Assembly (NCBI GenBank): GCA_947165555.1
Contig: CAMVAR010000001.1
Location: forward strand, 1 to 36,662
Length of the DNA: 36,662 nt
Origin: an uncultured Pseudomonadota bacterium
Lineage (GTDB): Bacteria > Pseudomonadota > Alphaproteobacteria > Rs-D84
Direction: 5' to 3'
Position numbers and translations under genes: made by a program. Every line of letters starts with the position of its first letter. Position 1 is the first letter of the stretch. This document shows, in pieces, positions 13,637 to 17,556 of the stretch. Below the pieces are notes generated by a model, which was not told the DNA's origin, made no database searches, and saw nothing but the letters and a program-made list of their open reading frames with translations.

Positions 13637-14323
13637 ATGTCATACATCTGGAACAAATTCAATATAAAAACATTTCCCGCAGAAACGATTGTTTACTGTG
13701 ATGGGAATTATCAAGAACAATTTTCAACACTAACAGAATTTGGCGCGTTATCAAAAAAATACGATTTACCAGTACATATTATATATGTTGGTAAAATTCA
13801 GCGCGAAAATACATTAAATATAAATTTGAATACAGATAATCAACCGGTATTTCTTAGTGTTAATGTTTCAAATGATTCCCCGGCAATTTTAAACATTTTT
13901 ATCAAAAATGCCGGGGAAAATTCTGATATTCGTGGCCATATAATGTTGAAAAATTATTCAGATTTGGTCGTTAATATTATCGGGGAACATATTGTTAAAA
14001 ATTCAGGTATTTTATTACAAACCAAGGTAATTGGTGCAAAAAACAGTTATTCAAAAATATCGGCCGTCGCAATTGTTGAAAAAAATTGCGAAAATATAGT
14101 TTCTGATGTTCGTATGTCAGGACACGCATTAGATACAACCGCAAAAATACGATTTATACCGCGACAATGTATTTCATCAGTACCAAAATCTGCCGAACAT
14201 AGTGCGTATTTATTCCACGAAAACCCGGCACAGGAATTATATCTGCGTGGGGCGGGATTATCCGGTGCAGAGGTCAAAGATACTATGGTCGAAGCATTTA
14301 TAAACGATTTTAATCTGTTTTAA
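13637..14323 (+). CDS. Short SufD/SufB-like (UPF0051) beta-helix protein
   Basis: The C-terminal region SAEHSAYLFHENPAQELYLRGAGLSGAEVKDTMVEAFINDF mirrors the SufD C-terminus (...HGATVG..DDEQLFYLRSRGI..EA..L...AF). I chose the start at MSYIWNK to avoid overlap with ychF. There are no sufB, sufC or sufS neighbours. Confidence 0.55.
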   Translation: MSYIWNKFNIKTFPAETIVYCDGNYQEQFSTLTEFGALSKKYDLPVHIIYVGKIQRENTLNINLNTDNQPVFLSVNVSNDSPAILNIFIKNAGENSDIRGHIMLKNYSDLVVNIIGEHIVKNSGILLQTKVIGAKNSYSKISAVAIVEKNCENIVSDVRMSGHALDTTAKIRFIPRQCISSVPKSAEHSAYLFHENPAQELYLRGAGLSGAEVKDTMVEAFINDFNLF

Positions 14324-14387: not shown

Positions 14388-14522
14388 TTATTTTCTTTTA
14401 AAACCCTGTTTTGCTTTGAATTTTGGGTTATCTGGGTCGATTAATACAATCTGTTTACCACGACGGATTTGTTTTATATTACCGCGCTTTTTCCAGGCCC
14501 GCAAAGAACTTAAAAACTTCAT
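14388..14522 (-). CDS. rpmJ: 50S ribosomal protein L36 (Cys-free type)
   Basis: This gene is not in the ORF track because it is only 44 aa. My hand translation is MKFLSSLRAWKKRGNIKQIRRGKQIVLIDPDNPKFKAKQGFKRK. It matches the YkgO/alphaproteobacterial L36 pattern (MK..sL+..k.r......+R+G+.yvI.k.nP+FKA+QG). An AAAGGA Shine-Dalgarno sequence lies upstream. Confidence 0.85.
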   Translation of the reverse strand: MKFLSSLRAWKKRGNIKQIRRGKQIVLIDPDNPKFKAKQGFKRK

Positions 14523-14611
14523 ATTAATATCCTTTTTGCATGGGGTATTATAAACACTTTTTAACAAAAATCAAATAATATATTATTTATTTTGTTTTTG
14601 TTATTTGGTCG

Positions 14612-14796
14612 GTTGAATTTGTTGAAAAGTGGTTTTAAACAAAGTTTTCAACAAAAAAATCCAGTAATTTAGTGGTTTTTAATAAAAATGTTGAAAAATA
14701 TAACCTGTTGAAAAACTGTGGAAAAAAATAAAGGTTTTCAATATTTTCAACAATTTTATGTTTTTGTTTTTTATACTTGTTGAAAATTGTTGAAAT
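14612..14796. promoter_or_regulatory. Array of about 10 GTTGAAA(A)/TTTTCAAC motifs upstream of virB3
   Basis: Forward copies start at 14612, 14621, 14690, 14707, 14718 (the variant GTGGAAAA), 14779 and 14789. Inverted copies start at 14645, 14735 (variant) and 14744. Several pairs are spaced 9-11 bp apart. Confidence 0.6.
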
Positions 14797-14805
14797 TGTT
14801 ATAAT
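14777..14805 (+). promoter_or_regulatory. Putative sigma70 promoter with extended -10 for virB3-virB4
   Basis: The layout is TTGTTG (14777-14782), 17 nt, then TATAAT (14800-14805). A TG lies at 14797-14798, giving TGTTATAAT. An AGGGGGG Shine-Dalgarno sequence lies 8 nt before the virB3 ATG. Confidence 0.5.
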
Positions 14806-14836
14806 GCAATTATAGCAGGTTAGGGGGGAATTTAAA

Positions 14837-15142
14837 ATGAGACAACAGGTACTAAAAGCATTGGCAAATCCGTCACATTTGTTCTTTGTACCGTACACAT
14901 TGGCCGTGATAAATTTCATGGTTCAGTTTTGTATTTTTATTATTTTATTTACAATTGGTATTTTTGTTTTTGGAATAGAAGATGTTGCCGGATATATAAA
15001 CCCATTGTATTTTTTAATATCTGTATGTGTTGTTCATATGATTTTAGCGCGTTATTCAAAACGTGACCCACAACTTGGCCAAATTTTAATCGCAAAAATA
15101 CGTATGTTAAAAAATAAAATACCACGGAGGTTGGCCGCATGA
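14837..15142 (+). CDS. virB3: Type IV secretion system protein VirB3/TrbD-like
   Basis: This is a 101-aa ORF with two hydrophobic helices. It has the VirB3-type N-terminus (KALANPSHLFFVPYTLAVINFM) and ...ARYSKRDPQLGQIL. Its stop overlaps the virB4 start (ATGA). Confidence 0.75.
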   Translation: MRQQVLKALANPSHLFFVPYTLAVINFMVQFCIFIILFTIGIFVFGIEDVAGYINPLYFLISVCVVHMILARYSKRDPQLGQILIAKIRMLKNKIPRRLAA

Positions 15143-17556
15143 TAGATGGTTTTTTTGGATATTTTGCCGGCGGTGGTTTTTCAGAAACGATGACATTAAC
15201 TATTATGGCCATCGCGGTGATTTTTGTATTTATTATATTAATGATATATGTGCCAACAATTGTAAAACATGTTTTTCCAAAATTTGGTTATAAACATTAT
15301 TATCAATATATTCCATTTCAAACCGTATATACCGATGATTCGTTGGAATTATCAGATGGATGTTTGGTACGTGTGTATGCAATATCTGGGGTACAAACCA
15401 GTATGCAGACCGATGAACAAAAAGAAAAATTTTTAGATTTACGGGCGCAGTTATTTAATCAAATTCATGACCCGAACGTTATATTGCGTTTTTTTACAAC
15501 ACGCGATGCCGTTGGTGAAAATACAGATTATGAATTTGACCAACCGGTTTTACAAAAAATTTATGATAAATGGCATGCCCAGGGGTTACGTATATTTATC
15601 AATAATTATTATGTTGTGTTATCGGTGCGCGGGATAAATACACGTGATAAATTAAATCAATATAGTAATTATATAGAATCTATTTTGGCACCATATAATC
15701 CGCGTGTTTTGAAAAATAAATCACGTAATAATATGGCAAAGTTTTTTGGTCGTATTTTTTCACCAATTACAAAACCAAATCCCGTCGTGTGTGATGAAAA
15801 AATTACAGAGTTATCAACCGTTGATGATGTGGAATTTTTACGTAATGGTATTGTTCGTTATATAAGTGGTAATCGTGAATATTTTGCGGCGTTGATGTCT
15901 TTTCGGGCGGCACCTGATTTCTTGGACGAAGATTTTTATGATTCTGTTAATACAATTCAAACAGAAATGATTTGTATGAATGGTTTTAAAATCATGGATT
16001 CAACCGATGTTGATACGGTTATGCGACAAAGACGTAGTGTTGCATCAAAAGAAAATGATTCAACCGAAGAACAAATTTCGCATGCACAATCGGTCATGGA
16101 TGAAAATGTGTCTGGGAATCAGACGTTGGTGAATTATTATCCATTGTTTGTAATTTTTGGAAAATCAATCGAAGAATTAACAGAATATGTTGATGAATTT
16201 AAAAAAATTTCTGCATCGTTTGGCGTGTCACCAATACAGGAAAATTTTGCAACCAAGGTTTCGTGGTTTTCGATGGTGCCGGGATTTGATACATTTCCAC
16301 GAACATTTAAAATGCTATCGCGGGCCGCCGCAATTAGTATACCAATGTCCAGTGCACCACGCGGTATTTCGGATTCAGATTGGGGAAATGGACCGTTGGT
16401 TGTTTTTCCCACGGCCCAGGGTACCCCATATCAATTTCAATTTCATGTATCATCTGCGCCGGCCGCGGTTGGTCATACATTAACAATCGGTCCAACCGGT
16501 GGTGGTAAAACAACATTATTTTCATTCCTTATTGCACAATCGTTGCGACATAAAAAACTAAAAGCGTTTTTCTTTGACCGTAACAAAGGTGCAGAAATAT
16601 TTACACTGGCCGTTGGTGGAAAATATATCACAATGCAAGGTAAAGAAAAATCTGATACGACATTTTTAACACATCTTAATCCATTAAAAATGCCGGATAC
16701 GGTCGCAAATCGTGCATTTTTACGTCGATGGTTTGCAATGATTTCGGAACAAAATGATGCAATATCGTCCGATGAAATTGCGCGCGCGGTATCAGTTAAT
16801 TATGATTATTTATCAGATAAAGATAGAATGTTAAAAAATCTGTGGGAAAGTTGTTTTTCATCCGCAGGAAAAATGCGCCCCGCGTTGAAAAAGTGGGTGG
16901 ACCCGTTGCAATATGGTGATATATTTAATGAAGATAGTGATACACTGGATTTACAATCACGTTTAACTACATTTGATTTTACCGATATTTTACAAGATGC
17001 GGTTTTGGCACCGGCGGTTATTTCATATATATTGCATCGTATAAATAATACAACCGTTTCAGGTGGAAATCCATCGCTTATTATGATAGACGAAACCGCG
17101 CCGATGTTGGAAAATAAAATGTTCCGTGATAACTTTATCACCGGTTTACAAGAAGGACGTAAAAATCGTCAGGCATATATGGTCGCGTTCCAACGTGCAA
17201 ATGTACTGGATAAATTGGGTATTGGTGATGTTGTTCGTGGTCAGGCTCAAACGATTATGTTTTTCCGGAATCCCGCCGCGGATGCGTCTGATTATGAACA
17301 TTGGAATTTAAATCCATTGGAAATGGCATTTATCCAAGGCAAGGCGTATCCAAATCTGAAACGTGCGGTTTTGTTATCACGTCCTGTGAATAATGAATCG
17401 GTTATTTTAAATACAGAATTGGGTGGATTAGGAAATATGTTGCGTTTATTTGAATCTGGACGTTCATCGGTGTTATTGGCCGAAGAACTGTATCGACAAT
17501 ATGGTTCGGCATTTGTTAACGAATACCTTAGAAAACAAGGGGTTGGTGATTTATAA
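15139..17556 (+). CDS. virB4: Type IV secretion system ATPase VirB4/TrbE family
   Basis: This is an 805-aa ORF. It has Walker A (IGPTGGGKTTLFSFL), Walker B (SLIMIDETAPML) and downstream GRKNRQAYMVAFQ. An extra N-terminal TM helix is present. Confidence 0.93.
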   Translation: MIDGFFGYFAGGGFSETMTLTIMAIAVIFVFIILMIYVPTIVKHVFPKFGYKHYYQYIPFQTVYTDDSLELSDGCLVRVYAISGVQTSMQTDEQKEKFLDLRAQLFNQIHDPNVILRFFTTRDAVGENTDYEFDQPVLQKIYDKWHAQGLRIFINNYYVVLSVRGINTRDKLNQYSNYIESILAPYNPRVLKNKSRNNMAKFFGRIFSPITKPNPVVCDEKITELSTVDDVEFLRNGIVRYISGNREYFAALMSFRAAPDFLDEDFYDSVNTIQTEMICMNGFKIMDSTDVDTVMRQRRSVASKENDSTEEQISHAQSVMDENVSGNQTLVNYYPLFVIFGKSIEELTEYVDEFKKISASFGVSPIQENFATKVSWFSMVPGFDTFPRTFKMLSRAAAISIPMSSAPRGISDSDWGNGPLVVFPTAQGTPYQFQFHVSSAPAAVGHTLTIGPTGGGKTTLFSFLIAQSLRHKKLKAFFFDRNKGAEIFTLAVGGKYITMQGKEKSDTTFLTHLNPLKMPDTVANRAFLRRWFAMISEQNDAISSDEIARAVSVNYDYLSDKDRMLKNLWESCFSSAGKMRPALKKWVDPLQYGDIFNEDSDTLDLQSRLTTFDFTDILQDAVLAPAVISYILHRINNTTVSGGNPSLIMIDETAPMLENKMFRDNFITGLQEGRKNRQAYMVAFQRANVLDKLGIGDVVRGQAQTIMFFRNPAADASDYEHWNLNPLEMAFIQGKAYPNLKRAVLLSRPVNNESVILNTELGGLGNMLRLFESGRSSVLLAEELYRQYGSAFVNEYLRKQGVGDL

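Follow-up and report, generated by a model that had tools for sequence, protein, structure and literature searches.

The 36,662-nucleotide stretch of DNA analyzed here (the window; contig CAMVAR010000001.1 of assembly GCA_947165555.1) carries a 314-bp spacer of 22% GC (positions 14523–14836), between rpmJ and the type IV secretion system (T4SS) genes virB3-virB4, in which one short repeat recurs about ten times within 200 bp, and the question raised by this locus is what such an array is for. An earlier reading made from the letters alone (hereafter, the sequence-only reading) had taken it for an operator of the secretion genes. VirB4 searches assigned the window genome to Candidatus Enterousia (Alphaproteobacteria; order Rs-D84 of the Genome Taxonomy Database, GTDB), which comprises reduced gut genomes of about 0.9 Mb (PMC12306168). 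We computed the motif statistics of the array, its conservation, layout and uniqueness, its position relative to the switch in GC skew, and its homology to arrays with canonical DnaA boxes. On this sequence evidence, the array is very probably the oriC of this Candidatus Enterousia genome, the origin at which replication of its chromosome starts, and the 9-bp unit of the array is the DnaA box of the lineage.

The window's own assembly (G000; 751 kb in 125 contigs, 43% GC) was compared with OZ007020.1 (G041), a complete circle of 958,618 bp, with the Enterousia genomes G002, G003 and G013, and with members of family f2 (G025), family f3 (G040) and family f5 (G028).

Repeat units and their enrichment

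Exact copies of the 8-mer GTTGAAAA were located in forward orientation at 14621, 14690, 14707 and 14779 and in inverted orientation at 14645 and 14744. Copies with one mismatch were found at 14633 (−), 14718 (+), 14735 (−) and 14789 (+), and one with two mismatches at 14612 (+). The array thus totals seven forward and four inverted copies, six of them exact 9-mers and five weaker; the sequence-only reading had counted the seven forward copies correctly and had missed one of the inverted ones. Because a T precedes all six exact copies of the 8-mer, the true unit is the 9-mer TGTTGAAAA. The closely spaced pairs proposed in that reading were all present as described, with spacings of 9 bp for 14612/14621 and 14735/14744 and of 10 bp for 14779/14789, as was the dyad 14621-N16-14652.

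The density of the repeat was not a product of base composition. The 9-mer occurred six times; when the 314-bp spacer was shuffled 20,000 times with its dinucleotides preserved, it appeared 0.04 times on average and never more than twice. The observed number is thus far above the expectation for local AT-rich DNA, and in the 751-kb assembly the 8-mer clustered nowhere but in the rpmJ-virB3 spacer. The dense array is therefore real. The tandem pattern TGTTRAAA-N0-3-TGTTRAAA was essentially confined to the array locus in six near-complete genomes, and a reversed control pattern gave no matches; beyond the array, the tandem pattern matched in G002:C8, at G003:C1:497 kb, and in G028:C4, the last inside an apparent coding sequence. 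We further scanned 300-bp windows with the a priori pattern TTWTN[C/A]ACA, covering the whole of the window's own assembly and sampled origin-proximal regions of the other genomes. The array was the densest window in each case, with 10 matches against 4 in the next densest in G000, 7 against 2 in G041, 6 against 2 in both G013 and G003, 5 against 4 in G025, 7 against 4 in G040 and 6 against 3 in G028. No cluster of classical DnaA boxes was found elsewhere in G000 or in the 120 kb around the G041 skew switch.

Two minor groups of repeats were observed apart from the array. Three further exact copies of GTTGAAAA lie within a SufD-like open reading frame to the left of rpmJ (window 13721–14082), and the 300-bp window from 13887 in this region, with four boxes of the relaxed pattern, was the joint second-densest in the assembly; these copies could serve as auxiliary boxes for DnaA on the flank of the origin, or be due to chance. 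In G041, far from the origin, the minus strand alone carries five exact copies of TGTTRAAAA within 1.75 kb (G041:C1:19833–21585), which are probably a coding repeat.

The repeat as a DnaA-box variant

The consensus of the unit in the genus was TGTT[G/A]AAAA, which reads TTTT[C/T]AACA on the opposite strand. The unit departs from the relaxed DnaA-box consensus TTWTNCACA only at position 6, where A replaces C, and its single variable position in the genus falls on the N of that consensus. One copy, at 14717–14725 (TTTTCCACA), matched TTWTNCACA exactly, with no mismatches. An oriC is expected to hold at least three DnaA boxes (TTWTNCACA with up to one mismatch) in one non-coding region; eight such 9-mers, one of them exact, were present in 14620–14786. 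The motif is, moreover, identical to the DnaA-box consensus of mollicutes, TT(T/A)TCAACA (PMC3322544); ttttcaaca serves as the DnaA-box motif for Lawsonia (PMC2671203), and TTATTAACA serves as the DnaA box for Mycoplasma hominis (PMC2751442). The sequence-only reading had not recognized the motif as a DnaA site, and in this respect it has to be corrected. The boxes of the array are as follows.

14611–14619, plus strand: weak box GGTTGAATT (genus TGTTGAAAT), in the same orientation as the next box
14620–14628, plus strand: strong box TGTTGAAAA (TTTTCAACA on the minus strand), separated from the first trinucleotide repeat by a 13-bp spacer
14633–14641, minus strand: weak box, TTTTAAACA on the plus strand, differing by a single base from TGTTRAAAA as well as from the relaxed DnaA box; TTAACA here in relatives
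14645–14653, minus strand: box, TTTTCAACA on the plus strand, an exact copy conserved in 91 sequences
14689–14697, plus strand: box TGTTGAAAA, an exact copy
14706–14714, plus strand: box TGTTGAAAA, an exact copy, in columns of low conservation and not kept at this position by most congeners
14717–14725, plus strand: box TGTGGAAAA (equal to TTTTCCACA), the exact TTWTNCACA match; genus consensus here GTTGAAAA
14735–14752, minus strand: two abutting boxes, TTTTCAATA TTTTCAACA on the plus strand, conserved as a pair in relatives
14778–14796, plus strand: tandem boxes TGTTGAAAA-T-TGTTGAAAT, the nearest to the virB3 promoter, whose −35 element and spacer they cover; CTTGTTGAAAATTGTTGAAAT nearly invariant in 91 sequences

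Since some congeners carry TTAACAGTTTTTTAACA, a formal match to TTAA-N7-TTAAC, we considered whether the array might consist of CtrA-type half-sites. Most copies, however, read TCAA rather than TTAA, and of the box spacings of 9, 10, 11 and 12 bp, those of 9 and 10 do not fit the 11-bp CtrA period. Six-frame searches of G000, G003, G013, G002 and G041 detected no PF00486 winged-helix domain, while the control was positive in Caulobacter and Escherichia coli, so that this is apparently an alphaproteobacterial lineage without CtrA. We therefore regard CtrA sites as an extremely improbable explanation.

Conservation of the array in relatives

The sequence-only reading had held that its proposal would fall if the motif were absent upstream of orthologous virB3 genes. 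The array was present at the same positions in all of the 19 congeneric genomes first examined, even though their VirB3 proteins were only 43–69% identical. Across 91 distinct Enterousia sequences, information content was highest on the boxes and low between them, and the block CTTGTTGAAAATTGTTGAAATTGTTATAAT was almost invariant; such peaks on the boxes, with drift in between, are the footprint of binding sites, and we regard the array as under strong selection.

Homologous arrays were also found in the sister families. Family f2 carried arrays of TTAT[C/T]AACA with tandem pairs upstream of virB3. In family f5 (G028), six boxes lay within about 200 bp upstream of virB3, where TTTTTCACA, TTATTCACA and TTTTCCACA were mixed with AACA boxes. 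The homologous array of family f3 (G040) mixed two canonical TTATTCACA boxes with three copies of TTATTAACA. This last array was placed differently: in the region G040:C1:430,721–432,906, it occupied a 243-bp spacer after parA-parB and before a DUF1653 gene, 2.5 kb past the 3′ end of virB4 and not upstream of virB3. As the G028 array again stood upstream of virB3, family f5 gave no decoupling of the array from that gene; G040 did.

These comparisons bear on the operator that had been proposed at the outset, that is, an array through which a dedicated regulator, different from DnaA, would switch the T4SS genes. In favor of it, the array immediately precedes virB3 in families f1, f2 and f5, and the right arm overlaps the promoter. 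Against it, the repeat unit corresponds to a DnaA-box variant already on record, canonical DnaA boxes occur in the homologous arrays of sister families, the tandem pattern is essentially unique within each genome, the G040 array is separated from virB3, and no winged-helix regulator of the OmpR, PhoB or CtrA type was found in five genomes by a search that did find those of Caulobacter and E. coli. Nor was there an array near the VirB10 locus of G041, where no exact box occurred between 21.6 and 31.0 kb, and the recurrence at other secretion genes that an operator had led one to look for was thus not seen. We consider such an operator very unlikely. What stands of the original proposal is an ordered, conserved array for a DNA-binding protein; what does not stand, given a pattern unique to its locus and an array beside parB in G040, is dedicated control of secretion.

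Position on the chromosome

The position of the array relative to the GC-skew switch was read in the relatives, about 40% of OZ007020.1 being sampled. In this genome (G041), the arc that runs from 720 kb across position 0 to about 145–157 kb had negative skew; between 157 and 205 kb the skew was mixed, and beyond 205 kb, as far as about 680 kb, it was positive throughout (+0.12 to +0.28). The array occupied 205,095–205,270; the terminus lay at 680–720 kb, which places its antipode at 201–241 kb. The draft genome G013 showed negative skew for 230 kb, a plateau at 232–244 kb and positive skew thereafter, with the array at 232.6–232.75 kb, and in the draft G003 the switch fell within the first 28 kb of the contig and the array at 23.7 kb. 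On a 240-kb contig of G025 (f2), the cumulative minimum was at 180,000 (in 5-kb steps) within a flat plateau of 170–195 kb, and the array was at 179,989–180,164. In G040 (f3), skew was positive from 430–440 kb and the array was at about 432.4–432.67 kb. Gene strand bias was weak in G025 and G040, indicating that skew there is not merely transcriptional. Thus, in G041, G013, G025 and G040 the array lay at the skew minimum opposite the terminus, as expected of an oriC, but only to within a mixed zone of about 18–48 kb. The partition gene parB was 10–46 kb from the array in G025, G013 and G041 and directly adjacent to it in G040.

A second proposal of the sequence-only reading, replication or partition iterons brought in with the T4SS genes from a plasmid or an integrative and conjugative element (ICE), can be judged from the same data. 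T4SS genes are often borne on plasmids or ICEs, and iterons are short direct repeats. The array, however, showed no similarity to 72,556 plasmids and had no adjacent Rep or Par gene in the window; its core spacer beside rpmJ was kept across the genus and the order, at the chromosomal skew switch; and its 9-bp unit, present in both orientations, differs from the 17–22-bp direct repeats of plasmid iteron origins. The replication function in that proposal was well chosen, while an origin in a plasmid or ICE has next to no probability.

Unwinding-type layout at the left end

At the left end of the array, read from left to right, the least stable, AT-rich DNA was followed by five 3-nt repeats and these by a GC cluster of 4 bp, after which came a weak box and then a strong one. 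The elements preceding the boxes are as follows.

14560–14591, no strand: AT-rich candidate DNA-unwinding element by nearest-neighbor free energy, overlapping the −35 element of rpmJ
14592–14606, plus strand: five trinucleotide repeats, TTG TTT TTG TTA TTT, resembling DnaA-trios; genus consensus T-[T/A]-[G/A]
14607–14610, no strand: 4-bp GC cluster GGTC (genus GG[C/G]C), from column counts in 91 sequences

Nearest-neighbor free energy placed the starts of the least stable 30-mers within 14400–14900 at 14560–14576, so that easily melted DNA directly adjoins the trinucleotide repeats, as expected of an oriC, and 14575–14591 was 100% A+T. The first base of each triplet was T in 90–91 of the 91 sequences, the period was strictly 3 nt, and some congeners carried TAG TTG TAG TAG TAG in this region. 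In the basal unwinding system (BUS) of bacterial origins, co-oriented boxes lie at most 3 bp apart, the spacer is at most 16 bp long, with 13 bp the commonest length in predicted elements, and the distal box matches better (PMC8287927). Here, the box at 14611–14619 abuts the co-oriented box at 14620–14628, and the spacer (14607–14619) is 13 bp. In the cryo-EM model of the Bacillus subtilis element, trio 1 is T16-A17-G18, followed on the 3′ side by G19-G20 (PMC10721633). The strand polarity of the trios in the array agreed with this model (5′-T16 A17 G18 G19 G20-3′) and also with E. coli oriC, in which T-rich 13-mers come before a GC-rich stretch and the R1 box TGTGGATAA; the sequence used for it was verified as exact and single-copy against 5,426 genomes.

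We infer from this arrangement that DnaA binds the array and that the duplex opens at its left end. ATP-bound DnaA would fill about ten boxes across 14611–14796, and the co-oriented pair of a weak and a strong box at 14611–14628 would direct a DnaA oligomer across the GC cluster (14607–14610) and onto the trinucleotide repeats of the plus strand (14592–14606). The oligomer would then open the AT-rich stretch at about 14560–14591, beside the rpmJ promoter, where the helicase would be loaded. By analogy, the divergent transcription of rpmJ and virB3-virB4, away from the origin, should favor opening through negative supercoiling, much as gidA does at E. coli oriC. At the right end, DnaA on the last boxes probably modulates transcription of virB3-virB4, or else that transcription assists opening of the origin.

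Weighing the origin assignment

Several observations weigh against placing the origin here. Skew resolved it only to the mixed zone of about 18–48 kb, and the array lay at one edge of that zone (157–205 kb in G041 and 232–250 kb in G013). At a scale of 1–2 kb, skew followed gene orientation, and the window's own cumulative minimum was near 4 kb. An origin at the array would put about 8.7 kb of the genes on its left, from mreC to dnaG, head-on to replication. A BUS has at least three trios with a central A (NAN), and in the window the middle base was T in all five; among the 91 sequences it was T in 51–89, depending on the triplet, and TAG occurred three or four times in some congeners only. 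For this reason, the element is described here as BUS-like and not classed as a canonical BUS. Finally, dnaA was about 140–160 kb from the array, so that proximity to dnaA lends the assignment no support; an origin distant from dnaA is not unusual in Alphaproteobacteria.

As another candidate, we considered the divergence of rpmI and mreC (window about 4.06–4.2 kb), which coincides with the window's own cumulative-skew minimum. It contained no boxes and its skew followed the gene strand, and it was rejected.

These points leave some room for a different role of the same boxes, namely, as a promoter under DnaA control or a site that titrates DnaA, comparable to datA, DARS or the promoter of dnaA, with the true oriC elsewhere in the mixed-skew zone. 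Two boxes do overlap the virB3 promoter, in a block that is the most conserved part of the spacer, and skew cannot narrow the origin below the 18–48-kb zone. Yet no other DnaA-box cluster was found in that zone or in the window's own assembly, the left end bears a full unwinding layout that would be superfluous for mere regulation, and the G040 array is not at the virB3 promoter. We judge a purely regulatory or titrating site improbable and retain the chromosomal origin as the preferred assignment.

DnaA and the dnaA gene

The genome encodes DnaA, as a bacterium with such an origin should: a PF00308 match was found on contig C111, truncated at the contig end in G000, and the protein of G041 has 428 amino acids. 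Enterousia DnaA was divergent from solved structures, with an E-value of 3e-40 to B. subtilis DnaA. In domain IV, at the positions that we take to be 423, 435 and 439 of E. coli DnaA (Pro423, Thr435 and His439), Enterousia DnaA has A, T, G or S at 423, A at 435 and Y at 439. The C-terminus was compared in ten Rs-D84 genomes, five of Enterousia and five of other families. Pro423 was kept in families f3 and f5, which have canonical CACA boxes, and lost in f1 and f2, which have essentially AACA boxes only. Loss of this residue may thus track AACA-only arrays, although across four families the agreement is only suggestive.

A residue count on the alignment placed a Ser of Enterousia DnaA at the position of B. 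subtilis Asn187, and the protein was also substituted at the positions aligned with Glu183, Asn196 and Arg202. As Asn187 reads the middle adenine of the trio (PMC10721633), the Ser would fit the altered middle base of the Enterousia trios, but this is only a correlation.

A further element was observed upstream of dnaA in six Enterousia genomes, with the form CGAATCGTTGTCAAAAAATAAATGTT[G/A/C]AAAAATTGTTTAACA; in G041 it lies about 250 bp from dnaA (L148:1240–1275). Its single box, in which the fifth base varies freely among G, A and C, stands opposite an inverted sequence, TGTTTAACA, that resembles a box. The same element was found in L147, L149, L150, L151 and L021, weaker in L151 and degenerate in L021, the window's own genome. 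It may serve autoregulation of dnaA by DnaA.

Flanking genes and overlap with the virB3 promoter

Both flanking transcription units read away from the array.

14388–14522, minus strand: rpmJ (ribosomal protein L36) coding sequence, left flank; Pfam Ribosomal_L36 match, kept in the alignment of relatives
14547–14574, minus strand: rpmJ promoter TTGATT-16-TATAAT; 10 of 12 matches in the promoter scan, both hexamers nearly invariant in 91 sequences
14797–14805, plus strand: extended −10 element TGTTATAAT of the virB3-virB4 promoter, from the sequence; nearly invariant in 91 sequences
14837–17556, plus strand: virB3 (14837–15142) and virB4 (15139–17556), right flank; Pfam VirB3 and CagE_TrbE_VirB matches

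Searches of Rfam at E-values up to 1 detected no known RNA in the spacer. The virB3 promoter already recognized from the sequence alone is real, and its extended −10 element is nearly invariant; our promoter scan missed it because its −35 element is weak. The −10 element at 14797–14805 would put the transcript start near 14812, and the array is consequently upstream of the promoter, outside the transcribed leader of the virB3-virB4 operon of which it had been supposed to form part.

The overlap of the right-hand pair of boxes with this promoter was seen as it had been described: the two rightmost boxes (14778–14796) overlay the −35 element and the spacer. Because of this overlap, DnaA occupancy probably modulates virB3-virB4 transcription as well, and we infer from the sequence that DnaA may in this way act on the virB3 promoter in addition to the origin. 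A bolder proposal, which we regard as conceivable though doubtful, is that in Rs-D84 the oriC and the virB3-virB4 promoter are physically fused, with two DnaA boxes making up −35 and spacer in at least three families, and that DnaA would thereby tie expression of the T4SS ATPase module to the initiation cycle. In the same proposal, DnaA would have shifted both of its codes, the box from CACA to AACA with loss of the residue aligned to E. coli Pro423, and the middle base of the trio from A to T with Ser at the position of B. subtilis Asn187.

Two side observations concern the secretion genes themselves. A VirB10/TrbI homologue was found in G041 (G041:C1:30424–31050), about 175 kb from virB3-virB4, while the incomplete G000 gave no match. 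From this distant locus it follows that the T4SS genes are split over at least two loci and that virB3-virB4 is no true orphan pair. A VirB4 77% identical to that of the window was encoded on contig CAVGNU010000002.1, yet its record is titled 'Bacteroides fragilis isolate ... cleanbin'; it is probably mis-binned or mislabelled.

Comparison with known origins

Among the Enterousia papers listed by a literature search, we found no origin described for Enterousia or Rs-D84; the one consulted, PMC12306168, is silent on oriC, replication and GC skew. If our assignment is right, an origin is now located for Candidatus Enterousia and, by homology, for the gut-associated, reduced-genome order Rs-D84, which would help in orienting and annotating genomes and in estimating growth rates from metagenome coverage. 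The assignment also cautions against taking such an array for a virulence or secretion switch. It would offer a natural test case for the co-evolution of DnaA-box and DnaA-trio specificity with DnaA residues, as well as a testable tie between replication initiation and expression of a secretion module.

The array is not beside dnaA, and in this it resembles alphaproteobacterial origins (Cori of Caulobacter, and the predicted oriC of Rickettsia and Wolbachia), which are not known to adjoin that gene either. CtrA sites and a location near hemE are typical of those origins, whereas no CtrA-type regulator was found in Enterousia and the array lies beside virB3. Like the array, E. coli oriC has a T-rich strand on the 5′ side of a box oriented as TGTGGATAA, a scaffold of boxes in both directions, and promoters at its edges (gidA and mioC). 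It differs in its box variant and in that, in the array, the boxes themselves form the −35 element and spacer of a promoter; no IHF, Fis or GATC elements were evident at the array, at which no dedicated look for them was made.

The left end of the array can be set beside the BUS of B. subtilis (DnaA-box 6/7), which likewise combines two co-oriented boxes, of which the distal is the stronger, with a 13-bp spacer that contains a 4-bp GC cluster; five or more 3-nt repeats follow on the strand that reads 5′-T-N-G, and AT-rich DNA after them. The B. subtilis element requires A as the middle base, whereas the repeats of the array mostly have T there and A in a minority of congeners, and its Asn187 stands against the Ser of Enterousia.

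The same kind of box is found in the oriC of Mollicutes (Mycoplasma, Spiroplasma and phytoplasma), where the 9-mer is TTTTCAACA or TTATCAACA, and TTATTAACA in M. hominis (PMC3322544, PMC2751442). There, too, the genome is reduced and AT-rich and the boxes are clustered in one intergenic region. The mollicute origins flank dnaA, whereas the array stands between rpmJ and virB3 with dnaA 140–160 kb away. As Enterousia is alphaproteobacterial (Rs-D84), the box variant that it has in common with Mollicutes is probably convergent.

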